From Nitrospirota bacterium (GTDB taxonomy: Bacteria; Nitrospirota; Thermodesulfovibrionia; Thermodesulfovibrionales; UBA1546): a DNA stretch of 42,660 nt. Position numbers and translations under genes: made by a program. Position 1 is the stretch's first letter. Each line of letters opens with the position of its first letter. Below are positions 5,929-18,645 of this stretch, in pieces. Under the pieces are notes generated by a model. It had not been told where the DNA came from. It saw only the letters and a program-made list of their open reading frames with translations, and searched no databases. The stretch spans positions 1 to 42,660 of the forward strand of contig JACQXD010000141.1 in assembly GCA_016208875.1 (NCBI GenBank), written 5' to 3'.

Positions 5929-6786
5929 ATGCTGATAATAGGAGAGAAATTAAGTATTATAGCCAAAAGGGTCAGAGAGGCTATGATGAAAAAAGATAAG
6001 GGACCGATACAGGAGATTGCGACCCGGCAGTGGAAGGAAGGCTCCGGTATGATTGACGCAAACATTGGGCCTGCGGAAGACGGTGGGGAGGAATTGATGC
6101 AGTGGATGGTCACTACGATACAGGAAGTAGTGCCGTTACCGATATGCCTCGATACAACTAATGCAAATGCGATAGAGGCCGGGCTTAAGGTCCATAACAA
6201 TCAATGGGGAAGACCCCTGATAAACTCGACGTCGAATGACCCGGAAAGATTTCCTATTCTCGAACTCGGGGCAAAATATAATGCACAGGTTATAGGATTA
6301 ACCGTAGGAAAAGGCGGTCTGCCCGCCGATGCTGAGGAACGTGCCGGGATTGCAGCAGAGATCATGGCAAGGGCAATGGAATATGGTTTGCCTCTGGAAG
6401 ATATCTACCTTGATCCGTTGGTGCTTCAGATAGCGACCTCTCAGGATCATGCAAGACATGTGATAAACGCAATCAGTATGTTTAGGGAAATGAACGATCC
6501 CCCGATGAAGACCGTTGTTGGTCTGAGCAATATCTCAAACGGATGCCCTAAGACGCTTAGACCGATCCTGAATAAACACTATTTTGTAATGCTGCTGAAC
6601 GCCGGTTTGACTGCGGCAATTGCCGATGCCCACGAGATGGCAGAGGCCGTTCAGGAAAAGAAGATGATTGATGACGTCCTATCCGGAAAAACGCTTGATA
6701 ATGCAGAAAAAATGGCAGAGATAACAAAGACAATTGATGTGATAATGGGTAAGACCCTTTATGCACATTCGTATTTGGAAATGTGA
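5929..6786 (+). CDS. acsE: Methyltetrahydrofolate:corrinoid/iron-sulfur protein methyltransferase
   Basis: MLIIGEKL...IDANIGPA...LCLDTTN...INSTS...YLDPLVL...VGLSNISNG is collinear with Moorella AcsE as recalled. AAGGAGG lies 8 nt upstream. Confidence 0.9.
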   Translation: MLIIGEKLSIIAKRVREAMMKKDKGPIQEIATRQWKEGSGMIDANIGPAEDGGEELMQWMVTTIQEVVPLPICLDTTNANAIEAGLKVHNNQWGRPLINSTSNDPERFPILELGAKYNAQVIGLTVGKGGLPADAEERAGIAAEIMARAMEYGLPLEDIYLDPLVLQIATSQDHARHVINAISMFREMNDPPMKTVVGLSNISNGCPKTLRPILNKHYFVMLLNAGLTAAIADAHEMAEAVQEKKMIDDVLSGKTLDNAEKMAEITKTIDVIMGKTLYAHSYLEM

Positions 6787-6790
6787 AAAG

Positions 6791-6868
6791 ACGTAACACG
6801 TAACACGTGACGCGTGACAGGAAATAAGTTATGTTTTACGCATTACGCATTACGTGTCACGTATTACG
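6791..6868 (+). repeat. Heptad-array hairpin A1 (acsE-acsD junction)
   Basis: Left arm ACGTAAC ACGTAAC ACGTGAC GCGTGAC (6791-6818), 17-nt loop, right arm TTACGCA TTACGCA TTACGTG TCACGTA TTACG (6836-6868). It ends 7 nt before GGAGG. Confidence 0.9.
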
Positions 6869-6885
6869 AATTAATGGAGGTTAAG

Positions 6886-7830
6886 ATGGCTTTTGTTGCT
6901 CCAAAGGAGACTTACTCAGGGAAGGTTTATAACGTAAATATTGGAACGGGTGATAAGGCGATAAGTTTCGGCAGTGAAAATGTACTTCCTTTTCATTCAT
7001 TTGAGGGTGCGGTTCCAAATAAACCATTAATTGCATATGAGATACAGGATGTCCCGCCTTCAGACTGGCCCGAGAATGTGCAGAAACCGTATAGCAGCGT
7101 ATCGGGCGATCCTGTTACATGGGCAAAATTCTGTCAGGATAGCCTAAATGCAAAGGCAATTGCCTTAAGACTTCTCGGTACCCATCCCGACAGGGAGAAT
7201 CGTTCACCTGAAGACGCTGCAAAGACTGTAAAAGACGTGCTTGCTGCTATAAATATACCTTTGATAATACTCGGAAGTAATCATGCCGAGAAAGACGCCC
7301 CTGTTTTAATCGCTGCTGCCGAGGTTGCAAAAGACAAAAATTGTGTAATAGGCAAGGCACAGGAAGCTAACTACAAGACCATTGCTGCCGCTGCAATGGC
7401 AAATAATCATAAGCTGATCGCCATGTCGGAACTCGATATAAACCTTTCAAAGCAGCTTAATATTTTAATAACCCAGATGGGTTTTGATAAGGAAAGACTT
7501 ATAACCGATCCTATGTGTTCTGCATTGGGTTATGGGCTTGAATATACATATTCCGTTATGGAAAGGATAAGACTTGCTGCACTCACCCAGAACGATCTTA
7601 CAATGCAGCCTCCAATGCTTGCCGACGTCGGCATGTATGTATGGAAGATCAAAGAGACGCAGGCGCCTGAATCGGATGTGCCGCAATGGGGCAATGCCGA
7701 AGAAAGAGGCATTGCGTGGGAGGCTATGACTGCTACTGCATTGCTGATGGCTGGAGCCGAACTGCTTATTATGAGACATCCTAAGGCGGTTGAGGCAGTA
7801 GGGAAAGTGATTGAGGAACTGAACGCGTAA
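6886..7830 (+). CDS. acsD: Corrinoid iron-sulfur protein small subunit
   Basis: Start moved to ATG 6886 (GGAGG 6876-6880). The tracked 5' extension from 6814 is encoded by repeat A1. NYKTIAAAAMANNHKLIAMSELDINLSKQLNILI...YGLEYTYSVMERIRLAAL matches AcsD/CdhD. Confidence 0.9.
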   Translation: MAFVAPKETYSGKVYNVNIGTGDKAISFGSENVLPFHSFEGAVPNKPLIAYEIQDVPPSDWPENVQKPYSSVSGDPVTWAKFCQDSLNAKAIALRLLGTHPDRENRSPEDAAKTVKDVLAAINIPLIILGSNHAEKDAPVLIAAAEVAKDKNCVIGKAQEANYKTIAAAAMANNHKLIAMSELDINLSKQLNILITQMGFDKERLITDPMCSALGYGLEYTYSVMERIRLAALTQNDLTMQPPMLADVGMYVWKIKETQAPESDVPQWGNAEERGIAWEAMTATALLMAGAELLIMRHPKAVEAVGKVIEELNA

Positions 7831-7901
7831 CGCGTAACGCGTGACACGTGATGCGTGACAGGTTAAGTTACGCATTACGCATTACGTGTTACGTATCACG
7901 A
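7825..7901 (+). repeat. Heptad-array hairpin A2 (acsD-acsC junction)
   Basis: GCGTAAC GCGTAAC GCGTGAC ACGTGAT GCGTGAC (7825-7859), 7-nt loop, GTTACGC ATTACGC ATTACGT GTTACGT ATCACGA (7867-7901). The first heptad contains the acsD stop TAA. Confidence 0.95.
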
Positions 7902-7919
7902 TAATTGGAGGTTTTTGAC

Positions 7920-9260
7920 ATGGCTTTGACAGGCGTTGAGATATTTAAACTGTTACCTAAGACAAACTGCAAGAAATGCGGGCATCCAACTTGTCTTGCC
8001 TTTGCAATGAAACTTGCACAGAGGCAGGCTACACTCGATTTATGTCCGGACGTTTCGGAAGACGCAAAGAGGATACTCGGAGAGGCTTCAGCACCTCCTA
8101 TACGGCCGATTACCTTTGGTTCGGGTGATAAGGCTGTCAAGATGGGCGAGGAAACCGTGCTTTTCAGGCACGATAAAAAATTCGTAAATCCGTGTACTTT
8201 GGCTATAGAACTTAAAGATTCACTTTCAGAATCCGATATCTCAAAAAAGTTGGATGAAGTGCTTACATCCGAGATTGACCGTGTGGGACAGAAACTCAGG
8301 GTTGACGCAATTGCACTCACAAATGCATCCGGAGATAAGGGCAAGTTTGAGGCGGCAGCAAAACTTATTTCATCGAAGGCATCAGGTGTACCGGTGATAC
8401 TCTCGACAACAGATCCTGCATCTGCCGAAGCTGCGGTAAAATTATTTACAGGTAAAAGACCGATTATATATGGCGTAAATGCATCGAATGCAGAGGCAAT
8501 GGCTAACATTGCCAAGACCGAAAAGGCAATACTCGGTGTAGTAGCGAACGGGCTTGACGAGCTATCTACTTTAACAGAGAAGATAAAGTCGCTCGGCGTT
8601 GAAGATATGGTGATAGATTCCGGGGCAAGAAAGGCAAAGGATATCGTCGAAAATAATACGCTGATAAGAAGGGCTGCGATAAAGAAAAACTTTAAACCCC
8701 TCGGCTATCCGGTTATTAATTTTGTACAAAGAGAAGACAGCCTTTATGAGGCATTGATTGCAGCCGTAGGGATAACTAAATTTTCTTCGATACTCGTCCT
8801 AATCAGTATCGAGAAATGGAAAAACCTTGCAATGTTCACTCTCCGCCAGAACATCTATACCGATCCTCAGGTTCCGATGCAGGTGGAGCAAAAGATATAC
8901 AAGATTGGAGAACCGACAGCCGAGTCGCCATTGACAATAACCACTAATTTTTCACTCACATATTTTATAGTGTCGGGCGAAATCGAGAATAGCAAGATAC
9001 CAACGAGGCTTGCCGTAATGGACTGTGAGGGGCTATCCGTATTGACCGCATGGGCAGCGGGAAAGTTCACCGCATCAAAGATAGCAACTTTTATAAAAGA
9101 AAGCGGTATTGAAAATGAGGTAAAACATCGGGAATTGATAATTCCCGGATACGTTGCAATAATAAGCGGTTCGATCGAAGAGAAATTAGAAGGCTGGAAG
9201 GTTACTGTAGGCCCGCGTGAAGCAAACGGACTGCCGGCTTTTTTGAAGGCACGTACATGA
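7920..9260 (+). CDS. acsC: Corrinoid iron-sulfur protein large subunit
   Basis: Start at ATG 7920 (GGAGG 7907-7911). MALTGVEIFKLLPKTNCKKCGHPTCLAFAMKLA carries the [4Fe-4S] motif. The C-terminus VTVGPREANGLPAFLKART aligns with the end of Moorella AcsC as recalled, so the protein is full length. Confidence 0.9.
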   Translation: MALTGVEIFKLLPKTNCKKCGHPTCLAFAMKLAQRQATLDLCPDVSEDAKRILGEASAPPIRPITFGSGDKAVKMGEETVLFRHDKKFVNPCTLAIELKDSLSESDISKKLDEVLTSEIDRVGQKLRVDAIALTNASGDKGKFEAAAKLISSKASGVPVILSTTDPASAEAAVKLFTGKRPIIYGVNASNAEAMANIAKTEKAILGVVANGLDELSTLTEKIKSLGVEDMVIDSGARKAKDIVENNTLIRRAAIKKNFKPLGYPVINFVQREDSLYEALIAAVGITKFSSILVLISIEKWKNLAMFTLRQNIYTDPQVPMQVEQKIYKIGEPTAESPLTITTNFSLTYFIVSGEIENSKIPTRLAVMDCEGLSVLTAWAAGKFTASKIATFIKESGIENEVKHRELIIPGYVAIISGSIEEKLEGWKVTVGPREANGLPAFLKART

Positions 9261-9544
9261 CAAAAGATTTCCCCAGAGAAGAGGTTTACGGATTAACGTC
9301 TCAGATAAGGCGTTCCGCGGTATCCATTGCCAGTAATATAGCAGAGGGGGCCGCAAGAAATTCCAGAAAAGAATTTATTCAGTTTCTATATATTTCGTTA
9401 GGCTCTATTGCTGAATTAGAAACTCAAATCTTATTAGCAAAAAGATTAAATTATCTAAAGGCTGAAACCATTCTTTTTGAGATTGATAAGATTCGTCAGA
9501 TGACATTAGGTCTAATAAATTATTTGAAAAAGCGAGATACATGA
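9257..9544 (+). CDS. Four-helix-bundle protein (23S rRNA intervening-sequence protein family), N-terminally truncated
   Basis: FPREEVYGLTSQIRRSAVSIASNIAEGAAR...FLYISLGSIAELETQ is the family core. The ~30-aa first helix is missing. The ATG overlaps the acsC stop (ATGA). Confidence 0.75.
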   Translation: MTKDFPREEVYGLTSQIRRSAVSIASNIAEGAARNSRKEFIQFLYISLGSIAELETQILLAKRLNYLKAETILFEIDKIRQMTLGLINYLKKRDT

Positions 9545-9610
9545 TGCGGTGATGCATTATGCGAAACTTAAATTTTTTACGTGTTACGCATCACGCGTTA
9601 CGTATCACGT
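9542..9610 (+). repeat. Heptad-array hairpin A3 (degenerate left arm)
   Basis: Left arm TGATGCG g TGATGCA TTATGCG (9542-9563), starting at the stop codon. Right arm TTTACGT GTTACGC ATCACGC GTTACGT ATCACGT (9576-9610), ending 6 nt before GGAGG. Confidence 0.8.
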
Positions 9611-9626
9611 AATTTAGGAGGTAAAG

Positions 9627-11825
9627 ATGTCTAAGTTAATAGCCTCTGCTGCCATAAGGGGCGCTAATTCATTAGTCAAGCAGGCTGAAGATATGCTTGA
9701 AAAGGCCATTGCCGAAAAAGGTAAAGATTTCACCTTTGAATTCCCTGATACCGCATTCTATCTTCCCATGATATATGCAATGACAGCCTTCCCCGTAAAA
9801 ACGCTTGCCGATATGAAGGTAGCACTCGGTATGGCAAAAGAGTTACTGCATGAAGAACCGGAAGAGTATTTATGGAAGCCATATCTCGGAGAGGCGTTAG
9901 ACTCCGGCATGGCAACGCTCTTTGCAGAAGAGATACTACTTGCCATCAGGTATATCGCCGGACTTGAGCCTGCAAAAGACCCTGAGACAGGGTATGTGTA
10001 TAACGGATTCATTACGGATACTATTCAGAGGAACTTAGGTATCCAGCTTGTTGACGGAACAATGCCGGGGTTTGCAGCGGTTATCGGTGCTGCGCCGGAT
10101 GATGATACGGCAGTAAAGATAATCAGAGAGCTTCAGGAAAAGAATATTTTGACATTCCTCTCAGGTAATGTAAACGGTAACAGCGCAACAAAACAACTTT
10201 TAAGAAAAGGTGTTGAACTCGGATGGGATACAAGGATTGTCCCACTCGGGCCGGACACGGAACATACACTTTATGCTCTCGACTGGGCAGTAAGGGCATC
10301 TCTTATATTCGGAGGCAAAAAGCCAGGAGATTACAAAGAACATCTTAAATACCAGAAAGATAGGGTCTTTGCCTTTGCCCTTGTACTCGGTGAACTCGAC
10401 GATATCATATGGACAACCGGAGCTGGAGCCATAAATATGGGATTCCCGGCTATTGCAGATACAGACATACCGGTTATTCATCCGACGGGCGTATGTATTT
10501 ATGAAGAAGTTGACAAAGAATTAGACCATGACAAAATTGTTCAGAAATCCATAGAAGTAAGAGGGTTAAAAATTACTATAGAAAAACCTCCAATACCTGT
10601 AGCTTACGGGCCTGCGTTCGAGGGCGAAAGGATCAGGAAAGAGGACATGTTCATCGAATTCGGGGGGCAGAGAACACCTGCATTCGAATGGGTCAGGATG
10701 AAGGAACTTGATGAGATAGAGGATAACAAGGTGATCGTTGTTGGAACGGACTGGCAGTCAAGATATGAAAAAGGCGGGCAGATGCCCCTCGGTATTGTTA
10801 TTGATGTAGCCGGAAGAAAGATGCAAAAAGACTTTGAGTCCATCATCGAAAGAAAAGTACACCACAATATAAATGAGGCACAGGGACTATGGCATATGGG
10901 ACAGCGCGACCTTAACTGGTTGAGGATAAGTCATAATGCAAAGAAAGACGGAATTACGTTGGAACATTTTGGGGTTATTATGAACACAATGACCCATCAT
11001 AGGTTTAAGTCCATTGTAGACAAGGTTCAGGTGACTATCTATACGGATGAAAAGGATGTGCTTGCCGTACAAGAAGATGCGAGAAAGGCGTATAAGGAAC
11101 GCGACCATCGTCTCGGAGGGCTCGTAGACGAGGCAGTTGATACGTTTTATTCATGTCTGCTCTGTCAGTCATTTGCACCGAGCCATGTATGTGTAATAAG
11201 CCCTGAAAGACTCGGGCTTTGCGGAGCATATAACTGGCTCGATTGTAAGGCAGCCTTTGAGATAGACCCCACAGGCGGGAACCAGCCCATACCAAAAGGC
11301 GATCTTTTAGATGACAGATACGGCAGATACGTCGGTATAGACGATTACCTGAAAAAGGCCTCGGGTGGTGCTGTAGAGACGCTTAACCTCTATACAATAA
11401 TGGAAAACCCTATGACCTCCTGCGGTTGTTTTGAGTGCATTATAGCTATCGTGCCGGAGGCAAACGGCGTTATGATCGTTCAAAGAGGACACACAGGTAT
11501 GACTCCGGCAGGGATGAAATTTTCCACACTGGCAGGAAGCGTAGGCGGCGGAACACAAAATCCGGGCTTTATGGGTATCGGTAGAAATTTTATTGTAAGC
11601 AAAAAATTTCTTCATGGAGACGGCGGTATAAAAAGGATCGTATGGATGACGAAAAATCTTAAAGAGAGCTTAAAAGAAGAGTTCAACAAGAGGGCTGCCG
11701 ATGAAGGGGTTCCAGACCTTCTCGATAAGATTGCCGACGAATCCGTTGCAGAGGATTCGGAAAAGCTCCTTGAGTTCCTCACGAGCGTAGGACATCCGGC
11801 ACTCGAGATGGAACCAATGTTATAA
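9627..11825 (+). CDS. acsB: CO-methylating acetyl-CoA synthase
   Basis: 732 aa. It has the A-cluster motif TSCGCFECI and CQSFAPSHVCVISPERLGLCG. GGAGG lies 5 nt upstream. Confidence 0.92.
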   Translation: MSKLIASAAIRGANSLVKQAEDMLEKAIAEKGKDFTFEFPDTAFYLPMIYAMTAFPVKTLADMKVALGMAKELLHEEPEEYLWKPYLGEALDSGMATLFAEEILLAIRYIAGLEPAKDPETGYVYNGFITDTIQRNLGIQLVDGTMPGFAAVIGAAPDDDTAVKIIRELQEKNILTFLSGNVNGNSATKQLLRKGVELGWDTRIVPLGPDTEHTLYALDWAVRASLIFGGKKPGDYKEHLKYQKDRVFAFALVLGELDDIIWTTGAGAINMGFPAIADTDIPVIHPTGVCIYEEVDKELDHDKIVQKSIEVRGLKITIEKPPIPVAYGPAFEGERIRKEDMFIEFGGQRTPAFEWVRMKELDEIEDNKVIVVGTDWQSRYEKGGQMPLGIVIDVAGRKMQKDFESIIERKVHHNINEAQGLWHMGQRDLNWLRISHNAKKDGITLEHFGVIMNTMTHHRFKSIVDKVQVTIYTDEKDVLAVQEDARKAYKERDHRLGGLVDEAVDTFYSCLLCQSFAPSHVCVISPERLGLCGAYNWLDCKAAFEIDPTGGNQPIPKGDLLDDRYGRYVGIDDYLKKASGGAVETLNLYTIMENPMTSCGCFECIIAIVPEANGVMIVQRGHTGMTPAGMKFSTLAGSVGGGTQNPGFMGIGRNFIVSKKFLHGDGGIKRIVWMTKNLKESLKEEFNKRAADEGVPDLLDKIADESVAEDSEKLLEFLTSVGHPALEMEPML

Positions 11826-11834
11826 TAAAAAAAA

Positions 11835-11901
11835 GTGTCAGTGACAGTGAATCGTGTCAGTAAATATTTAACTGACACTGACCACAGACACTAATCACTG
11901 A
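11835..11901 (+). repeat. Hairpin A4 (variant repeat unit, acsB-acsA junction)
   Basis: GTGTCAGTGACAGTGAATCGTGTCAG (11835-11860), palindromic loop TAAATATTTA, ACTGACACTGACCACAGACACTAATCACTGA (11871-11901). There are perfect 7-bp pairings at the top (GTGTCAG/CTGACAC) and base (TCAGTGA/TCACTGA). Confidence 0.8.
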
Positions 11902-11914
11902 TATGGAGGATAGG

Positions 11915-13900
11915 ATGGATAAAGTAGTAAAGACCGCAAATAAAGAGGCAGCACAGGTTCTTGAGTGGGCTGAATCGCGCAATCTGGAGACCTGTTTTAC
12001 CAGGGCAGAAAGGCTTAAACCCTGTCCAATAGGCGAAACAGGGGCTTGCTGCAAGGTCTGTCATATGGGACCGTGCCGGCTCGTTGGTAAAAATACAGAG
12101 GAAGAGGCCAGAGGCGTATGCGGTGCAACCCTTCCTGTTGTTGCAGCAAGGAATCTTGTAAGAATGATAGCTGCCGGAACGGCATGTCATGGGGATCATG
12201 GAAGGGATATGGCATTTACCCTTCTTGCAGTAGCGAATGGAGATACCAAAGACTTTCAGATAAAGGATGTAAAAAAGCTCTATAGAGTTGCCGGATACCT
12301 CAATATCGAATTTGAGGGAAGACCTGTTAATGATGTAGCGAAGGATGTAGCAATAAAGTTGCTTGAGGACTTTGGCCGTCAGAGAGGCGTGGTTAACTTT
12401 ATTAAAAGGGCTCCCAAAAAGACTCAGGAGAGATGGGAAAAATGGGGCATCTTACCGAGAGGGATAGATAGGGAGATCGCCGAGTCATTGGACAGAACGA
12501 CAATGGGCATGGATGCAGACCCTGATTCACTCCTGACGCATGGTCTCAGAACCGCCCTTTCAAACGGCTGGGGCGGCAGTATGATTTCCACAGAAATTAC
12601 GGACATACTCTTTGGAACACCGATGCCTATTAAAGCAGAGGCGAGTTTGGGAATATTCAAGGACGAAGAGGTTAATTTAGTTATACACGGTCATGAACCA
12701 TCATTGGCCGAGACAATAGTAGATGTGGTATCCGAGCCTGAACTGGTGGCATACGCCATGACAAAGGGCGCAAAGGGAATAAACCTTGGCGGTATGTGTT
12801 GTACTGCCAACGAGGTTATGATGAGGCACGGTATCCCTACAGCAGGAGGGTTTACAAATCAGGAACTCGGCATCATGACAGGGCTGATTGATGCTATGGT
12901 CGTAGATGTTCAGTGCATCATGCCGGCACTGACTGAAATTTCAAAAAAGTTTCATACAAAGGTTCTGACAACATCAGAAAAAGTAAGACTGCCCGGTGCA
13001 CAGCACGTACAGTTTGACGAACACAGGGCAAAGGAAATTGCAAGAGAGATAGTTAAAATAGCTATAAATAATTTTCCGAATAGAAAGAAAGAAGGAAGCC
13101 ATATAACCGAGAAATTCCCGGTAATAGCAGGCTTCTCTCAGGAATATATAGAGTATATGCAGGGTGGAAAGTGGAGGGCGTCTTTCAGACCGCTGAATGA
13201 TGCTATTATGGCAGGAAGGGTACGCGGTGTTGTAGGTATGGCAGGATGCGACAATCCGAGGTTCCCTGCTACAGGCGTGCATAAATTTCTTGCAACAGAA
13301 TTAATAAAGAATGATGTACTTGTGGTTTCAACCGGCTGCAGTTCAGCGTCATGTGCTACGGCGGGATTTTTAACCCCTGAGATGGCAATCGAAAACGCAG
13401 GTCCCGGGCTGAGAGAGGTGTGTGAAGCTATTGGTATTCCACCGATACTTCATCTCGGTTCGTGTGTTGATAACACAAGGATACTTACCATTGCAACTGC
13501 AATGGCTGCAGAAGGAGGGCTCTCTGATGAAATCGGCGGTATGCCTGCTGTGGGTATAGCTCCCGAATTTATAACCGAGAAGGCGATATCCATCGGGTGT
13601 TATTTTGCAGCTTCCGGTGTACCGGTTATATTCGGAGGAGAATCGCCGGTTGGAGCAAGCAGTGAGGTCACAAGGATAATGACAGAGGTATGGTTCGAGA
13701 GGTTTAAGGGTGCACTGCACTTCGAACCCGATCCGGAAAAAATACTTGAAATGGCCATTGACTATATAGATAAGGCCAGAGAGGCATTAAAGCTTAAGAA
13801 ATACGAGCCGGGCAGATTCGGTACAGAGCGCGTCCTTATGGATATGGCTGCGAGACGCGAGATCGAAAGAGCTGCAAAACCGCATTTGGGAATATACTGA
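11915..13900 (+). CDS. acsA: Anaerobic carbon monoxide dehydrogenase catalytic subunit
   Basis: Start preferred at ATG 11915, because GGAGG 11905-11909 overlaps the tracked ATG 11903. It has CPIGETGACCKVCHMGPC and later Cys motifs typical of CooS/AcsA. Confidence 0.9.
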   Translation: MDKVVKTANKEAAQVLEWAESRNLETCFTRAERLKPCPIGETGACCKVCHMGPCRLVGKNTEEEARGVCGATLPVVAARNLVRMIAAGTACHGDHGRDMAFTLLAVANGDTKDFQIKDVKKLYRVAGYLNIEFEGRPVNDVAKDVAIKLLEDFGRQRGVVNFIKRAPKKTQERWEKWGILPRGIDREIAESLDRTTMGMDADPDSLLTHGLRTALSNGWGGSMISTEITDILFGTPMPIKAEASLGIFKDEEVNLVIHGHEPSLAETIVDVVSEPELVAYAMTKGAKGINLGGMCCTANEVMMRHGIPTAGGFTNQELGIMTGLIDAMVVDVQCIMPALTEISKKFHTKVLTTSEKVRLPGAQHVQFDEHRAKEIAREIVKIAINNFPNRKKEGSHITEKFPVIAGFSQEYIEYMQGGKWRASFRPLNDAIMAGRVRGVVGMAGCDNPRFPATGVHKFLATELIKNDVLVVSTGCSSASCATAGFLTPEMAIENAGPGLREVCEAIGIPPILHLGSCVDNTRILTIATAMAAEGGLSDEIGGMPAVGIAPEFITEKAISIGCYFAASGVPVIFGGESPVGASSEVTRIMTEVWFERFKGALHFEPDPEKILEMAIDYIDKAREALKLKKYEPGRFGTERVLMDMAARREIERAAKPHLGIY

Positions 13901-13964
13901 CGTGACACGTAACGCGTGACACGTGACATAAAACTTGTTACGCATTACGCATCACGTGTTACGT
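13900..13964 (+). repeat. Heptad-array hairpin A5 (acsA-nuoE junction)
   Basis: ACGTGAC ACGTAAC GCGTGAC ACGTGAC (13900-13927), 9-nt loop, GTTACGC ATTACGC ATCACGT GTTACGT (13937-13964). It ends 4 nt before GGAGG. Confidence 0.95.
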
Positions 13965-13977
13965 TTTTGGAGGTTGA

Positions 13978-14466
13978 ATGAAAGTAGAAGAACTTGATAT
14001 AGATGAGAAGATAGGCAATGTCAGGGATGTGCTGGGCGAGACCCAGAAAAAAAGAGGAGTTCTCATACATGCCTTTCAGAGTATACAAAAGGAATATAAT
14101 TACCTTCCGGAAGATGTATTAAAGTCTCTCTCAAAGAAGCTTGAGATACCATTGGCAGAGGTATACAGCACTGCCTCTTTCTATAAACATTTTTATTTCA
14201 AGCTGAGGGGCAAGAACGTTGTATGCGTATGCAGCGGGACTGCGTGTCATGTTAGGGGTTCTGACAAGGTGCTTGAGAAAATCGAGGAGTCATTCGGGAT
14301 AAAAGAAGGTGAGACCACGCCTGATTTATCTTTGACTCTCGAAACCGTCGGTTGTGTCGGCTGTTGTGGATTAGCCCCGGTCGTTACAGTCAATGAAGAG
14401 GTTGTCGGAGACCTAAATCCGAAAAAGGTAACCGGGATAATAAAGAGAGTGCAAAATGCAAAATGA
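13978..14466 (+). CDS. NuoE/HoxE-like thioredoxin-fold [2Fe-2S] protein
   Basis: CSGTACHVRG...CVGCCGLAPVV is the NuoE-type cluster motif. Confidence 0.85.
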   Translation: MKVEELDIDEKIGNVRDVLGETQKKRGVLIHAFQSIQKEYNYLPEDVLKSLSKKLEIPLAEVYSTASFYKHFYFKLRGKNVVCVCSGTACHVRGSDKVLEKIEESFGIKEGETTPDLSLTLETVGCVGCCGLAPVVTVNEEVVGDLNPKKVTGIIKRVQNAK

Positions 14467-14494
14467 GTAAACTTGTGAAAAAAACATTTTTCTT

Positions 14495-14602
14495 AAAATC
14501 CCCCTTCATCCCCCTTTTCCAAAGGGGGAAAGATATTTCCCTTTATCAAGAAGGATCAGGGTTTATTCCCCTCTTTGGCAAAGAGGGGTTAGGGGAGATT
14601 TT
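14495..14602. repeat. Family B composite palindrome, copy B1
   Basis: AAAATCCCCC...CCCCCTTTTCCAAAGGGGG...CCCCTCTTTGGCAAAGAGGGGTTAGGGGAGATTTT. Confidence 0.85.
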
Positions 14603-14637
14603 AAAATGAAAGGATTTTTGAGAAAAATTTTTCTTGT

Positions 14638-14723
14638 GTCATTCCCGCTTGTCGGGAATCCTTCTGGAAGAACGCAACTTGAACGAGAAAAAACAAGAAG
14701 GATTCCGAACAAGTCGGAATGAC
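14638..14723. repeat. Family C double-hairpin element, copy C1
   Basis: GTCATTCCCGCTTGTCGGGAATCCTTCT...AGAAGGATTCCGAACAAGTCGGAATGAC. Confidence 0.85.
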
Positions 14724-14742
14724 AAAGTATAATGGAGTTACA

Positions 14743-16623
14743 ATGGAAAAATTAAAGACTATAGATGAGTTAAATATATTGAGAGAACGTCTCAAAGAGG
14801 AAACGTTTAAACCCGATACACCGAGGATAAGGGTATGCAGCGGTACGGCATGCACAGCTTCGGGCACACCAAAATTAGTAACTGCTATCGAAGAAGAAAC
14901 GGGTAAAAAAGGATTAAAAGTTGAAGTAGTTAAAACAGGCTGTCAGGGATTTTGTCAGAAAGGCCCGGTGCTGAAGGTAGAACCTCAGGATATTTTTTAC
15001 CAGAAGGTGAAACCGGAACACGTAAGGTGGCTTATAAACTATACGGTAATCGGCGGGATGCCTTATCGCCAGGGTCTTTATAGAGACAGCTTTCTTACCG
15101 ACCCTGTACCTGATGTGGCAGACATCCCATTCTATAAGAAACAGGTAAGGATTGCCTTAAGAAATAACGGTCTGATAGACCCGCTTAACATTAATCAATA
15201 TATTGCTGTCGGAGGCTATTCGGCCTTGGCAAAGGCATTGAGTTCAATGACACCCGAACAGGTTTTGGATGAGGTTGATAAGGCAAACCTGAGAGGTCGC
15301 GGAGGTGCCGGATTCCCGGCAGGCAAGAAATGGAGACATACCAAAAAGGCTCAGGGAAAGATTAAATTTGTAATAGCCAACGGTGACGAGGGCGATCCCG
15401 GCGCATTCATGGACAGATCCGTTATGGAAGGAGACCCGCATAGTCTTATAGAAGGTATGCTTCTCTGTGCCTATGCGATAGGCGCAGAATACGGAATGAT
15501 CTATGTGAGGCATGAATATCCCCTCGCAGTCAAAAATCTCGGTATAGCGATAAAACAGGCTGAGAAATTCGGAATGCTCGGTAAAAATATCCTCGGCAGC
15601 GGATTTAATTTTACGCTCGATATACGTGAGGGTGCAGGTGCCTTTGTATGCGGAGAATCAACTGCATTGATAGCCTCCATAGAAGGCGAAAGGGGGTTCC
15701 CGAGGCCAAGACCGCCGAGACTTTCGGAGCCGGGTGGAGGTGCATGGGGTTATCCGAGCAACTTAAATAATATCGAGAGTTATGCATGTGTTCCGCCCAT
15801 AATAGAAAAGGGTGCGGATTGGTTTAGAAGTATCGGTACTGAAAACTCACCGGGCACAAAGGTTTTCGCTTTAACAGGAAAGGTTGTGAATACCGGTCTC
15901 GTCGAAGTTCCTATGGGGATAACATTAAGAGAGATAATCTACGACATCGGCGGCGGGATCATGGGTGGTAAAAAATTCAAGGCCATACAGACCGGAGGTC
16001 CGTCAGGCGGGTGTATCCCTGAAGGCCTTATAGATACCCCGGTAGATTTCGATACGCTGACAAAGGTCGGTTCTATGATGGGCTCAGGCGGTATGGTTGT
16101 TATGGATGAGGATAACTGCATGGTTGATGTCGCAAAATACTTCCTCTCATTCTGCCAGTCGGAATCTTGCGGGAAGTGTCCTCCTTGCAGGATAGGCACG
16201 TACCAGATGCTCCAGATACTCGAAAGGATAACATCCGGTAAAGGCGAGGAAGGGGATATCGAAAGACTTGAAAAGATCGGTAAAGACATAAAGCAGACCG
16301 CGTTATGCGGATTAGGACAGGCTGCACCAAACCCGGTGCTTACTACAATAAGATATTTCAGGGAAGAATATGAAGAACATATCCATGATAAGTACTGCAG
16401 GGCAAAGGTATGCAGCGGGCTCGGGATGTTCAGGATCGAAAACGATGAATGTATACTCTGCGGCCTCTGCAAACAGGCATGTGCATTCGATGCAGTGAAA
16501 GAGACGTCGCGGTCATTTTTAATAGATCAGGATTATTGCACGAAATGTAAGGCATGTTATCTTGCATGCCCTGTTGGAGCAGTAAAAGTGGAGAAAAAGC
16601 AACACGTAACGCGTGATGCGTGA
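14743..16623 (+). CDS. NuoF/HydB-like flavoprotein with extra N-terminal [2Fe-2S] and C-terminal 2x[4Fe-4S] domains
   Basis: Start moved to ATG 14743, because the tracked 5' end lies in repeat C1. It has GRGGAGFPAGKKW (FMN/NADH), ESCGKCPPCR (N3 cluster), and CILCGLCKQAC plus CTKCKACYLACP. The last 7 codons (QHVTRDA) are encoded by repeat A6. Confidence 0.88.
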   Translation: MEKLKTIDELNILRERLKEETFKPDTPRIRVCSGTACTASGTPKLVTAIEEETGKKGLKVEVVKTGCQGFCQKGPVLKVEPQDIFYQKVKPEHVRWLINYTVIGGMPYRQGLYRDSFLTDPVPDVADIPFYKKQVRIALRNNGLIDPLNINQYIAVGGYSALAKALSSMTPEQVLDEVDKANLRGRGGAGFPAGKKWRHTKKAQGKIKFVIANGDEGDPGAFMDRSVMEGDPHSLIEGMLLCAYAIGAEYGMIYVRHEYPLAVKNLGIAIKQAEKFGMLGKNILGSGFNFTLDIREGAGAFVCGESTALIASIEGERGFPRPRPPRLSEPGGGAWGYPSNLNNIESYACVPPIIEKGADWFRSIGTENSPGTKVFALTGKVVNTGLVEVPMGITLREIIYDIGGGIMGGKKFKAIQTGGPSGGCIPEGLIDTPVDFDTLTKVGSMMGSGGMVVMDEDNCMVDVAKYFLSFCQSESCGKCPPCRIGTYQMLQILERITSGKGEEGDIERLEKIGKDIKQTALCGLGQAAPNPVLTTIRYFREEYEEHIHDKYCRAKVCSGLGMFRIENDECILCGLCKQACAFDAVKETSRSFLIDQDYCTKCKACYLACPVGAVKVEKKQHVTRDA

Positions 16624-16834
16624 TACGTGACGGGAAGATATTAACGGTATCATAATAGTGACAACATTGATTTATTATAAAATCCCTCCTAACCTCCCTT
16701 TGCCAAAGGGAGGTATTAAGTTCCCCTCTTTGGCTAAGAGGGGCGAGGGGAGATTGACCGCTTAATATAATTTCAATTTTGAGACGGTTAATAAGTTGAG
16801 TTACGCATCACGCATTACGTGTTACGCATTACGT
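16604..16834 (+). repeat. Heptad-array hairpin A6, arms separated by 168 bp
   Basis: Left arm ACGTAAC GCGTGAT GCGTGAT ACGTGAC (16604-16631). Right arm GTTACGC ATCACGC ATTACGT GTTACGC ATTACGT (16800-16834). Element B2 lies between the arms. Confidence 0.85.
16679..16755. repeat. Family B composite palindrome, copy B2
   Basis: AAAATCCCTCCTAACCTCCCTTTGCCAAAGGGAGG...TCCCCTCTTTGGCTAAGAGGGGCGAGGGGAGATT. It is nearly identical to the reverse complement of B3. Confidence 0.9.
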
Positions 16835-16848
16835 GTTTTGGAGGTGAA

Positions 16849-17439
16849 ATGACGGAACAAAAAGAAAAAAAGGTTGAAGAGATAAAGAAAGAGGCAGAGG
16901 CAATGAAAAAATGCCCTGTCAATAAGGCTCTTTATTACATAGAGGAATTCCTTGCGGGACCCATGTGCGGCAAATGTTTTCCCTGCGAGATGGGCTGTTA
17001 TGAGGCAAGGATAAGGCTAAAAAAACTTACCGAAGGACAAGGTTCCGAAGCAGACCTTTTTGCATTGAAAAGAATTGCGAACGAGATGCTCCTTTCATCG
17101 AGATGCAAAAGGGGAAAAGACTCGGCACAGTTCATCCTCGAATGGATGGGAACCGATATTTATAAAGAACATATAGAAGGCATATGCCGGGATAAAGAAT
17201 GCACTGCATTAATCGAATATAGGATTATCCCTGAGAACTGCGCAATCTGCGGTCTTTGTGCCGATGCATGTAAATACAACGCGGTTCTCGGAGAAAAGAA
17301 AAAGACATACAAGAGCGGTTATCAGCCGTTTGAGATAAGACGGAAAAGATGCGTTAAATGCGGAGAATGTATAAAAGTTTGCCCGACCGGGGCGATTGTG
17401 ATAGTTGATGTAAAGGTGAAAGAAACGGTTGGAGTTTAA
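16849..17439 (+). CDS. Fe-S protein: NuoF C-terminal (N3 cluster) like domain fused to a 2x[4Fe-4S] ferredoxin domain
   Basis: Start at ATG 16849 (GGAGG 16840-16844). MCGKCFPCEMG...SSRCKRG resembles the NuoF ESCGKCxPCR...C motif. CAICGLCADAC and CVKCGECIKVCP are ferredoxin motifs. Confidence 0.75.
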   Translation: MTEQKEKKVEEIKKEAEAMKKCPVNKALYYIEEFLAGPMCGKCFPCEMGCYEARIRLKKLTEGQGSEADLFALKRIANEMLLSSRCKRGKDSAQFILEWMGTDIYKEHIEGICRDKECTALIEYRIIPENCAICGLCADACKYNAVLGEKKKTYKSGYQPFEIRRKRCVKCGECIKVCPTGAIVIVDVKVKETVGV

Positions 17440-18040: not shown

Positions 18041-18241
18041 ATGGGACATATGGTGGAAAAATATGAAACACAGACACTTATCAGAAAACAATTGGAACCG
18101 ATGGTTGGTGCAAGGTGGCGTGACAGAGAGGAACTTATTCGTATTGTTAAAAAGCAAGATAGAATAAGAGAAAGGCTAACTAAAAAACTAAAACCTTCGG
18201 ATAGCACAGAATTTATACGAAAATGGAGAGACGGCAGATGA
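18041..18241 (+). CDS. vapB: VapB-like antitoxin
   Basis: 66 aa. Its stop overlaps the start of the PIN gene (ATGA). The C-terminal DSTEFIRKWRDGR resembles antitoxins paired with PIN toxins. Confidence 0.6.
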   Translation: MGHMVEKYETQTLIRKQLEPMVGARWRDREELIRIVKKQDRIRERLTKKLKPSDSTEFIRKWRDGR

Positions 18242-18645
18242 AGGTGCTTGATGCGTCTGTAATTGTAAAGTGGTATAAGGATGAAAGGGAATCGGATAAG
18301 GCATTAGGGATAAGGGATGGTTTTGTTAATGGTAATTATGATTTAGCAGAACCGGACTTGATCCTTTATGAACTTGCAAATACCATCCGCTTTTCAGAGG
18401 GAAGCGAGGAAAACGATATCAAGGATGTTCTTGAGAATTTTTCGGCAATGGGACTGGAAATAATCGTCCCGACTATAACTTTATTGAAAAATGCCGCAGC
18501 TACCTCCTACAAATTTCAAATATCTATTTATGATGCAGTATATGTTGCCCTGGCAAAGAGTTTAGATGCTGAGTTTGTTACTGCTGATAAAAGGCTTTAT
18601 CAAAAAGTGAAAGGTACCAAAGGAATTATAATTAAGGAATTATAA
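18238..18645 (+). CDS. vapC: PIN-domain toxin
   Basis: MKVLDASVIVKWY (first acidic residue), LAEPDLILYELANT and FVTADKRL are typical PIN motifs. Confidence 0.8.
   Translation: MKVLDASVIVKWYKDERESDKALGIRDGFVNGNYDLAEPDLILYELANTIRFSEGSEENDIKDVLENFSAMGLEIIVPTITLLKNAAATSYKFQISIYDAVYVALAKSLDAEFVTADKRLYQKVKGTKGIIIKEL

Follow-up and report, generated by a model that had tools for sequence, protein, structure and literature searches.

Heptad hairpins between the cistrons of a Nitrospirota acs/nuo operon: probable arms of a mostly emptied PF05635 cassette

The acs/nuo operon on a 42.6-kb stretch of a Nitrospirota metagenome-assembled genome (MAG; GenBank JACQXD010000141.1, positions 1–42,660, called the window here) carries, in the spacers between its cistrons, tandem seven-nucleotide units (heptads) laid out as inverted, complementary arms. 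These arrays are probably the terminal inverted-repeat arms of a small cassette organized around a gene of the PF05635 family, mostly now empty of that gene and lodged in mRNA spacers. A complete cassette would comprise about four to five left heptads, a short leader with a Shine–Dalgarno sequence (SD) and an ATG, a gene of about 120 codons for a four-helix-bundle protein, and complementary right heptads running from the stop codon of the gene, and its lodging site in this Nitrospirota lineage would be the interval between a stop codon and the next SD. At the level of DNA, comparison among loci demonstrates the architecture of the elements, their association with the gene family, relocation, loss of the open reading frame (ORF), inversion, and fast turnover. 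Junctions are labelled J1 to J7 along the operon (Table 1), and loci used for comparison carry L numbers.

PF05635 Genes and Their Heptad Arms

The ORF between acsC and acsB in the window matches PF05635/TIGR02436, the "23S rRNA intervening-sequence protein" family, over profile positions 19–103 of 106; it is truncated at its 5' end and its upstream left arm is lost. A full-length orthologue of 119 amino acids with both arms occupies the same junction in L125 and L210. Around every one of the close homologues, RCGTRAY heptads run up to or into the ATG and RTYACGY heptads follow the stop codon, at acsC/acsB (L125 and L210), acsE/acsD (L211 and L213), and hisA/hisF (L214/L215 and L216/L217). One gene-plus-arms family is thereby found at three junctions in two operons, in seven independent Nitrospirota contexts when the window, itself without the left arm, is counted. 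Plasmid-borne homologues, the majority of them in Nostocales and one each in Gemmatimonadota and Bacteroidota, have inverted arms of period 7 or 8 in 11 of 12 cases (period 8 in three), built from other units such as GTAGGGA, GGGTGTA, GGCAGAA, AAGGGAA, GCAGGGA, and GGTTCAA. On plasmid NZ_CP016476.1 of Picosynechococcus sp. PCC 7003 (L228), a cassette with arms of the GGAGATAA/TTATCTCC type separates cas10/cmr2 from cmr3 in a type III-B CRISPR module.

A fixed flank test, scoring the best ungapped pairing between the 150 nt upstream and the 150 nt downstream of a gene, separates PF05635 genes from other genes. Among 19 Nitrospirota and plasmid contexts, 12 score at least 18 and 16 at least 15, the exceptions being the truncated window copy and two transposase-adjacent copies that retain the right arm only. 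In viral contigs, 29 of 50 loci score at least 18, and period 7 is present in 33 of the 40 stems scoring at least 12. Only 10 of 605 other small genes score at least 18, eight of them in loci chosen for heptad arrays (Fisher p about 1e-28 for PF05635 genes versus these controls). When whole cassettes are folded as RNA, the arms are predicted to pair over 27–41 bp around the ORF. Moreover, the arm unit follows the protein, with a mean unit distance of 1.4–2.0 between proteins at least 60% identical versus 3.3 for more distant pairs; judged by these distances, the arms are co-inherited with the ORF. Neighbours of PF05635 genes in viral contigs are co-directional in 15 of 42 cases (crude ORF heuristic), and because this orientation is mixed, no claim is made that cassettes are restricted to operons.

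Heptad Arrays in the Window

A strict pattern scan of the whole window for tandem RCGTRAY (left) and RTYACGY (right) units returned left arms of four to five units at four places and right arms of three to five units at five, the RCGTRAY type always upstream of the RTYACGY type; Tandem Repeats Finder, used as a second method, returned the same period-7 arrays. With one mismatch per unit allowed, the J1 right arm widens to 6835–6869 and that of J2 reaches 7901. These nine arrays fall inside 10 kb, and the remaining 32 kb yields 0 tandem copies, so that the inverted arrays reported by the initial annotation are real and, as it had stated, no full array lies elsewhere in the 42.6 kb. Its count of five junctions of one design holds in full for four of them, including the one it had placed after acsD, now specified as acsD/acsC; the junction that follows the PF05635 ORF (J3) has a full right arm and only a degenerate left one. 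The sixth junction, acsB/acsA (11835–11901), has the same layout with a different unit, GTGTCAG/CTGACAC, as had been proposed. Loops of the four full heptad hairpins measure 16, 7, 9, and 168 nt, and the right arms stop 4–6 nt short of GGAGG (3 nt at J4), in agreement with the short distance first described. The J1, J2, and J5 loops (AGGAAATAAGTTATGT, AGGTTAA, and ATAAAACTT) and the order of unit variants all differ. No Rfam covariance model matched any heptad junction, even at E ≤ 1.

The J7 loop holds short palindromes unrelated to the heptads, read here as secondary insertions; the whole orthologous nuoF/fdx spacer of L125 is only 71 nt, as against the 168 nt of this loop. The nuoE/nuoF spacer is free of heptads and contains other palindromic repeats resembling MITEs (miniature inverted-repeat transposable elements). 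Among the repeats in this spacer (14467–14718) and in the J7 loop are short CCCCTCTTTGGCAAAGAGGGG/CCTCCCTTTGCCAAAGGGAGG-type palindromes; an inverted repeat that resembles a MITE, TGTCATTCCCGCTTGTCGGGAATCC ... GGATTCCGAACAAGTCGGAATGACA, extends over about 14630–14725. An element of the form TGTCATTCC...GGAATGACA is also found in acs junctions of the MAGs L129, L131, L132, L145, L193/L194, and L207.

Empty and Decaying Derivatives

The closest link between a gene-less hairpin and a loaded cassette is found at J1, whose left arm is identical at 41 of 43 positions to the left arm of the PF05635 cassette of L211 at the same junction. The two agree nearly base for base on the left side (TGGAAATGTGA.AAGA.CGTAACACGTAACACGTGACGCGT) and again on the right (ACGCATyACGTGTCACG..TTACGAATT.A.GGAGGTTAA.ATGGC), the ORF being missing from J1. 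The 16-nt J1 loop (AGGAAATAAGTTATG) matches the leader of the L213 PF05635 gene (GACAGGTAATAAATGAATG), which holds an SD and a start codon, and the J2 loop opens with the same GTGAC/AGGT boundary between arm and loop. Alignment thus identifies J1 as an ORF-less derivative of a loaded cassette and its loop as a leader remnant. Furthermore, the acsE/acsD element is inverted between two relatives, since J1 of L125 (3570–3668), when reverse-complemented, shares with window positions 6787–6885 an identical run of 39 nt that includes the loop; this points either to an inversion by way of the arms of the element itself or to its having re-inserted the other way round.

Set beside the full cassette of relatives, the elements of the window show what reads as a decay series: at J3 the ORF is truncated and the left arm gone, J1 has no ORF and keeps a remnant of the leader, J2 and J5 are reduced to minimal loops, and the loop of J7 has been invaded by other small palindromes. 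In these terms the acsC/acsB element would be a decaying copy, those at acsE/acsD, acsD/acsC, acsA/nuoE, and nuoF/fdx ORF-less hairpins with loops of 7–168 nt, and that at acsB/acsA an ORF-less hairpin of another unit family. The miniature mobile element that the initial annotation had kept as a fallback comes closest to this picture, with arms on a PF05635 cassette, varied junctions and operons, loss of the ORF, and flipped orientation.

Orthologous acs Operons

Eighty-six orthologous acs loci were collected. In Nitrospirota relatives with AcsD 82–92% identical, the junctions repeat one order, in which a stop codon is followed by tandem heptads, a loop, heptads complementary to the first, a gap of few nucleotides, and then GGAGG and ATG, with about a dozen heptad families (GAGTTAA, AAGTGAA, ACGGAGA, GGTGAAT, GTGTCAG, AGTATCA, AGTAGnn, GGGTTCA, GAGCAAA, GGGATTA, and others). 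The unit families recur at different junctions in different genomes, and the family seen at J4, GTGTCAG, is present at other junctions in L126, L132, L146, L147, and L180. In acs loci totalling 1 Mb, period 7 dominates the intergenic tandem arrays, and of the 90 arrays with this period 81 lie between genes; a lag of 7 is also the commonest best periodicity of strong stems. Across 42 heptad hairpins, the median arm is 32 nt and the median loop 12.5 nt; the distance from the stop codon to the 5' arm has a median of 2.5 nt, and that from the 3' arm to the SD one of 5.5 nt.

What occupies a given junction changes between close relatives. The acsE/acsD spacer of L123 is 10 nt long and has no element. 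L128 and L129 encode identical AcsD proteins and have different acsC/acsB spacers, namely a 93-nt CAGTGAA-type heptad hairpin in L128 (12465–12557) and 256 nt with a MITE-like element and no heptads in L129 (12078–12333). More distant relatives have spacers of 12–13 nt. Close relatives thus differ by gain, loss, replacement, and inversion of heptad hairpins, whose turnover is fast.

Two further observations concern the same operons. Of the 42 acs heptad hairpins (window and L123–L209), 40 have a purine-rich 5' arm and 36 a 5' arm with more G than C, and stop codons in two or three frames occur in 37 of the 5' arms and 20 of the 3' arms; the purine polarity is the same on both strands of a hairpin and hence says nothing about strand. 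A second, non-heptad hairpin family, ATAGGTC.TATA..GACCTAT (e.g., TATAGGTCTTATACGTCCTATATGACCTAT), lies at acsA/nuoE or acsE/acsD of several relatives.

Regulatory Hairpins and the Strand Question

The initial annotation had mainly favoured an RNA-level role, such as intercistronic processing, segmental mRNA stability, or insulation of translation starts. The hairpins would then have a different origin, having evolved locally at each junction as regulatory RNA structures that the operon needs, with heptads as merely the easiest outcome of slippage that lengthened the stems. The placement of the 42 hairpins, with stems spanning the distance from stop codon to SD, would suit such a function, as would an architecture that stays constant at orthologous junctions while the units differ, and a distribution of 38 heptad hairpins in 284 acs junctions, 6 in 164 other co-directional junctions, and about 0 in 138 convergent or divergent ones (crude gene calls). 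All six window junctions, moreover, fold below dinucleotide shuffles (z = -4.0, -5.4, -2.2, -3.4, -5.4, and -8.2), so that the RNA-level role originally suggested keeps a predicted stem at every junction.

The strand argument for that role fails. It had been noted, correctly, that left units mostly carry G at position 5 (12 of 17) where the partner position of the right units is T (position 3, 17 of 23), from which it had been concluded that the stem is better in sense RNA, equal stability of sense and antisense folds being named as evidence to the contrary. Left units, however, also carry C at position 7 in 14 of 17 cases, and right units A at position 1 in 13 of 23, and this C opposite A is a mismatch in sense RNA and a G.U pair in antisense RNA. 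Since each window heptad pair combines one G.U with one C.A, the strands are equivalent. Folding in both orientations gave a mixed outcome, with sense/antisense minimum free energies (MFEs) of -29.7/-33.7, -41.6/-33.6, -22.9/-18.6, -24.1/-28.3, -33.9/-32.3, and -92.8/-86.7 at the six junctions; the sense fold is more stable at three junctions and the antisense fold at two, with near equality at the remaining one. In a strand-neutral alignment of arms, whose scoring treats G.U and A.C alike, 99 orthologous stems from the 86 acs loci contain 204 G.U-type and 206 A.C-type positions, an absence of strand bias that is as expected of an inverted repeat at the DNA level. The lower sense MFE in 133 of 199 spacers, a count made without shuffle control on stretches that include the purine-rich SD, is probably compositional, reflecting the SD and a purine-rich sense strand.

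Regulatory hairpins of local origin also fit poorly with the missing hairpin in L123 and the MITE-bearing spacer in its place in L129, with an element that is inverted between relatives and whose arms elsewhere carry a gene and occur in the his operon, and with distant relatives that manage with 12–13-nt spacers. Taken together, this origin appears unlikely. Passengers that are tolerated or selfish, with possible side effects on the operon, are a more likely description of the elements than sequence-optimized regulators, because no sign of tuning to sense RNA was found in the sequence and close relatives do without the stems.

The Same Heptad in Other Phyla

Species-representative genomes were scanned for four ACG cores in heptad register, and at least 120 loci in more than 10 phyla share the ACGC heptad of the window. 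The matches listed include Chloroflexota, Bacteroidota, Verrucomicrobiota, Acidobacteriota, Synergistota, Desulfobacterota, Nitrospirota, Planctomycetota, and others; among them, where both arm types occur near each other, the left type precedes the right in about 14 cases versus 1, and arrays range from 3 to 21 units, the single array of 21 being in L048. Such breadth would agree with another explanation, namely that the arrays are plain heptanucleotide simple sequence repeats (SSRs), of the long SSR (LSSR) or short tandemly repeated repetitive (STRR) kind, produced neutrally by polymerase slippage and template switching and unlinked to any gene family. The range of copy numbers and the intergenic bias of period-7 arrays would also agree with it, and in bacteria no class of long SSR is more over-represented than heptamers according to Mrazek (2007), as cited in PMC4679880 and PMC4692102. 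Plain slippage nevertheless leaves unexplained the near-obligate pairing of two arms, the purine polarity of the 5' arm, the limited set of about 12 unit families that recur across junctions, and the strong association with PF05635, and it is accordingly regarded as improbable.

Other features of the same matches are recorded here in their own right. Where ACGC-type arrays lie within 80 nt upstream of a start codon, the sense unit is RTYACGY in 34 cases versus 8 (heuristic gene calls), a bias that resembles the TAACTGA heptamers of Beggiatoaceae, found just upstream of start codons (PMC4679880). Arrays of other heptads are frequent neighbours of these arrays. In Chloroflexota and Synergistota loci (L002, L006, L022, and others), unrelated heptad arrays are adjacent or nested; L006 combines GAGCAAT, GAGGGAT, GCGTGAT, and CACTCAG, and in L022 the GCGTGAC array has AGTGAAA on its outside.

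Attenuation and DNA Binding

Partial intrinsic terminators that would grade expression down the operon are a highly unlikely alternative. A run of four to five U residues does precede the SD at J5 and J7, TTTTTT is found at acsB/acsA of L123 and nuoF/fdx of L125, and left flanks are often A-rich; J1, J2, J3, and J4, however, have no U tract, the stems are long, AU-rich, and mismatched compared with canonical terminators, a promoter and terminator consensus scan, itself uninformative, gave no + strand match at the junctions, and the essential downstream genes acsB and acsA would be starved. Tandem duplex-DNA sites for a sequence-specific acs regulator, raised in the initial annotation as protein-binding sites, are very improbable and close to refuted by unit turnover: the palindromic cores ACGT and ACGCGT and the symmetric arrangement would be compatible with them, yet orthologous junctions keep the architecture with unrelated heptads, the arrays lie inside a transcription unit and away from promoters, units spaced 7 bp apart do not keep phase with the DNA helix, and the same heptad stands beside unrelated genes in many phyla.

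Relation to Known Systems

The nearest parallel to the cassettes is provided by the intervening sequences (IVSs) of 23S rRNA that carry an S23p ORF in Leptospira, Coxiella, Brucella, and Xanthomonas, a protein of the same PF05635 family as the window ORF. In the Coxiella IVS, RNase III cuts a stem of 28 bp; tandem heptamers, three in number (GACAGAT x3), lie on the 5' side of that stem, at the RNase III site and just upstream of the S23p ORF (PMC4990558). IVSs also undergo ORF decay and exist in ORF-less versions, as do the window elements, and they are regarded as selfish elements of unexplained mobility. A stem of at least about 25 bp closing the element, typical of IVSs, is matched by 28–35 nt per arm in the window, where a PF05635 ORF lies in the loop at acsC/acsB only (truncated), J1, J2, J4, J5, and J7 having none. 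In contrast to IVSs, the host RNA consists of stop-to-SD spacers in polycistronic mRNA, with none of the window elements in a 23S rRNA helix; the arms are wholly tandem heptads, and several copies share one operon. Excision of the window elements by RNase III would follow by analogy only.

Tandem 7-bp hairpins between cistrons, a family that the initial annotation had not recognized, were already described as STRRs in cyanobacteria, where they form hairpins between hupS and hupL with proposed roles in transcript stability and translational coupling (PMC2670836), and heptamer LSSRs at a given locus differ in length and sequence from one close relative to another (PMC4692102). STRRs and LSSRs, including GGGAATC in Xanthomonas and GGGGAYT in Nostoc, resemble the window arrays in having 7-nt tandem intergenic units with several unit families per genome and inverted pairs that form hairpins between cistrons; at least three tandem 7-nt units in non-coding DNA, which define an STRR, are present in the window. 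Cyanobacteria dominate the plasmid PF05635 matches, and those genes are flanked by STRR-like arrays. The window differs in its host, a Nitrospirota and not a heterocystous cyanobacterium, in its units, and in arrays that are almost always paired. No paper linking STRRs to PF05635 genes was found in the literature searched (coverage incomplete), and a literature search for these heptad strings returned no relevant paper.

Repetitive extragenic palindromes (REPs), their hairpin-forming doublets (REPINs), and MITEs likewise form inverted-repeat doublets in intergenic and intra-operon spacers, with gene-less copies outnumbering those that carry a gene. The window arms differ from them in being internally periodic and in loops that are not conserved between copies, J1, J2, and J5 sharing units only; unlike REPs and REPINs, no REP-associated tyrosine transposase (RAYT) or other transposase is associated (some window ORFs scanned), the cargo being a four-helix-bundle protein. 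The early mRNA of phage T7 has hairpins between cistrons that are cleaved by RNase III and contain neither tandem repeats nor an ORF. T7 sites and window elements are both long imperfect intercistronic stems leaving the downstream ribosome-binding site free, cleavage being demonstrated in T7 and a presumption in the window. Finally, Avd, the accessory protein of diversity-generating retroelements (DGRs), has a four-helix-bundle fold homologous to the PF05635 ORF (weak NF033474 match; PMC10053308) and acts as a nucleic-acid-handling cofactor of a mobile retroelement. In contrast to DGRs, neither a reverse transcriptase nor a template/variable repeat pair (TR/VR) lies near the cassettes, and more distant Avd-like matches in viral contigs (L293–L296) are without heptad arms.

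Possible Effects and a Trans-Acting Partner

In the operon transcript, each element would fold into an imperfect stem of 28–35 bp, with its base at the upstream stop codon and its end a few nucleotides before the SD. By analogy with 23S rRNA IVSs, the founding members of the family, the acs stems would most likely be cleaved by RNase III or serve as barriers to decay, through which the long acs/nuo mRNA would be split into segments, each SD being left single-stranded just past a stem. A bolder extension, put forward tentatively and by analogy with TRAP, is that the PF05635 protein may be the trans-acting partner of the heptad arrays, binding one single-stranded heptad per subunit, about five per arm, and driving the spread or maintenance of its own cassette; the STRR, Xanthomonas, Bacteroidota, Chloroflexota, and Nitrospirota heptamers and the 23S IVSs could then be footprints of one element class. 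The four-helix-bundle family comprises 15,876 clusters at 50% identity, and its solved members form homopentameric rings.

Several points weigh against derivation of the hairpins from PF05635 cassettes. The association is one-way, that is, the gene has arms and most arms have no gene: a broad hidden Markov model (HMM) of 169 family members revealed no further PF05635 gene in the 120 listed multi-phylum loci with the same heptad or, besides the window and L125, in the 86 acs loci, and a single-sequence HMM and inspection of ORFs beside left arms gave no PF05635 ORF in the same multi-phylum loci. Hairpins could therefore pre-exist and be favoured by the gene as insertion sites. Only at J1 and J3 is derivation seen directly; that of J2, J5, and J7 rests on the common unit family and the GTGAC/AGG boundary between arm and loop, and that of J4 and the other unit families is an extrapolation. 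Comparison of empty spacers (L123 and L131) with filled ones gave no target-site duplication, and no transposase or other mobility signature was found, the operon neighbours of the elements being without RAYT or transposase (only some window ORFs scanned). The viral-contig loci are phylogenetically non-independent, and the near restriction of hairpins to co-directional junctions could mean selection for a function within operons instead of passive lodging.

Feature Coordinates and Neighbouring Genes

Table 1. Genes, junction arms, and loops along the acs/nuo operon of the window, with non-heptad hairpin sites of relatives. Strict-scan coordinates of each array are given where the scan returned it.
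Feature	Position	Strand	Strict scan	Remarks
acsE	5929–6786	+		
J1 (acsE/acsD) left arm	6791–6818	+	6791–6818	ACGTAAC ACGTAAC ACGTGAC GCGTGAC; begins 4 nt past acsE stop
J1 loop, 16 nt	6819–6834	+		AGGAAATAAGTTATGT; SD-like AGGA plus ATG
J1 right arm	6835–6869	+	6842–6862	TTTACGC ATTACGC ATTACGT GTCACGT ATTACGA; 6 nt to GGAGG (6876–6880), acsD ATG 6886
acsD (small subunit of corrinoid iron–sulfur protein, CFeSP)	6886–7830	+		
J2 (acsD/acsC) left arm	7825–7859	+	7825–7859	five heptads; acsD stop codon (7828–7830) inside
J2 loop	7 nt between arms	+		AGGTTAA
J2 right arm	7867–7901	+	7867–7894	five heptads; 5 nt to GGAGG (7907–7911), acsC ATG 7920
acsC (large CFeSP subunit)	7920–9260	+		
PF05635/TIGR02436 four-helix-bundle ORF	9257–9544	+		profile match; ATG overlaps acsC stop codon
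J3 (PF05635 ORF/acsB) degenerate left-type heptads	9546–9566	+		GCGGTGA TGCATTA TGCGAAA; directly past ORF stop
J3 right arm	9576–9610	+	9583–9610	TTTACGT GTTACGC ATCACGC GTTACGT ATCACGT; 6 nt to GGAGG (9617–9621), acsB ATG 9627
acsB	9627–11825	+		
J4 (acsB/acsA) left arm, different unit family	11835–11861	+		GTGTCAG / GTGACAG / GTGAAT
J4 right arm, CTGACAC family	11871–11901	+		3 nt to GGAGG (11905–11909); likely acsA ATG 11915
acsA	about 11915–13900	+		likely ATG at 11915
J5 (acsA/nuoE) left arm	13900–13927	+	13900–13927	four heptads; first base is last base of acsA stop codon
J5 loop	9 nt between arms	+		ATAAAACTT
J5 right arm	13937–13964	+	13937–13964	four heptads, then TTTT, GGAGG (13969–13973), nuoE ATG 13978
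nuoE-like	13978–14466	+		
nuoF-like	14719–16623	+		
J7 (nuoF/ferredoxin) left arm	16604–16631	+	16604–16631	four heptads; nuoF stop codon (16621–16623) within third heptad
J7 loop, 168 nt	16632–16799	+		unrelated short palindromes CCTCCCTTTGCCAAAGGGAGG and CCCCTCTTTGGCTAAGAGGGG
J7 right arm	16800–16834	+	16800–16834	five heptads, then GTTTT, GGAGG (16840–16844), ATG 16849
ferredoxin/NuoF-C-like gene	16849–17439	+		ATG 16849
non-heptad hairpin sites of relatives	L123:16731–16774; L125:10812–10865; L128:9940–10000, 16834–16883			window has heptad hairpins at these positions

Two ORFs downstream of the operon, one for a retropepsin-like aspartyl protease (PF13650/PF13975; 17537–18001) and one of 140 amino acids (18223–18645) that looks PIN-like by eye, are seemingly unrelated to the arrays. 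A period-7 GGATAAG run at 18294–18318 is in frame inside the PIN-like ORF and was set aside as unrelated to the junction arrays.

Concluding Remarks

Neither intercistronic heptamer hairpins nor IVSs with an S23p ORF are new. In the literature searched, which was covered incompletely, no prior description was found of PF05635 genes lying generally inside heptad-armed hairpins, nor of cassettes and their ORF-less derivatives populating mRNA spacers, and the connection of STRR repeats, IVSs, and the PF05635 family may likewise be without a previous account.

For annotation, the junction hairpins are best read as scars of an element and not as operon-specific regulators. The heptad arrays also appear to break short-read assemblies: the only other copies of the exact AcsD of the window, L121 and L122, are Logan contigs of 1.9–2.3 kb with acsD from position 1, whose ends fall where the J1 element would lie, which suggests that assembly stops at the arrays.

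To our knowledge, PF05635/TIGR02436 is a huge family with no known function outside the DGR protein Avd. Three long-standing loose ends, namely the 23S IVSs, this family, and the over-representation of tandem heptanucleotide repeats across many phyla of bacteria, known since 1990, are maybe one phenomenon. If the link is true, the PF05635 family would gain a concrete nucleic-acid partner, and heptamer repeats would gain a source, together with a reason for the long stems that punctuate some long operons.

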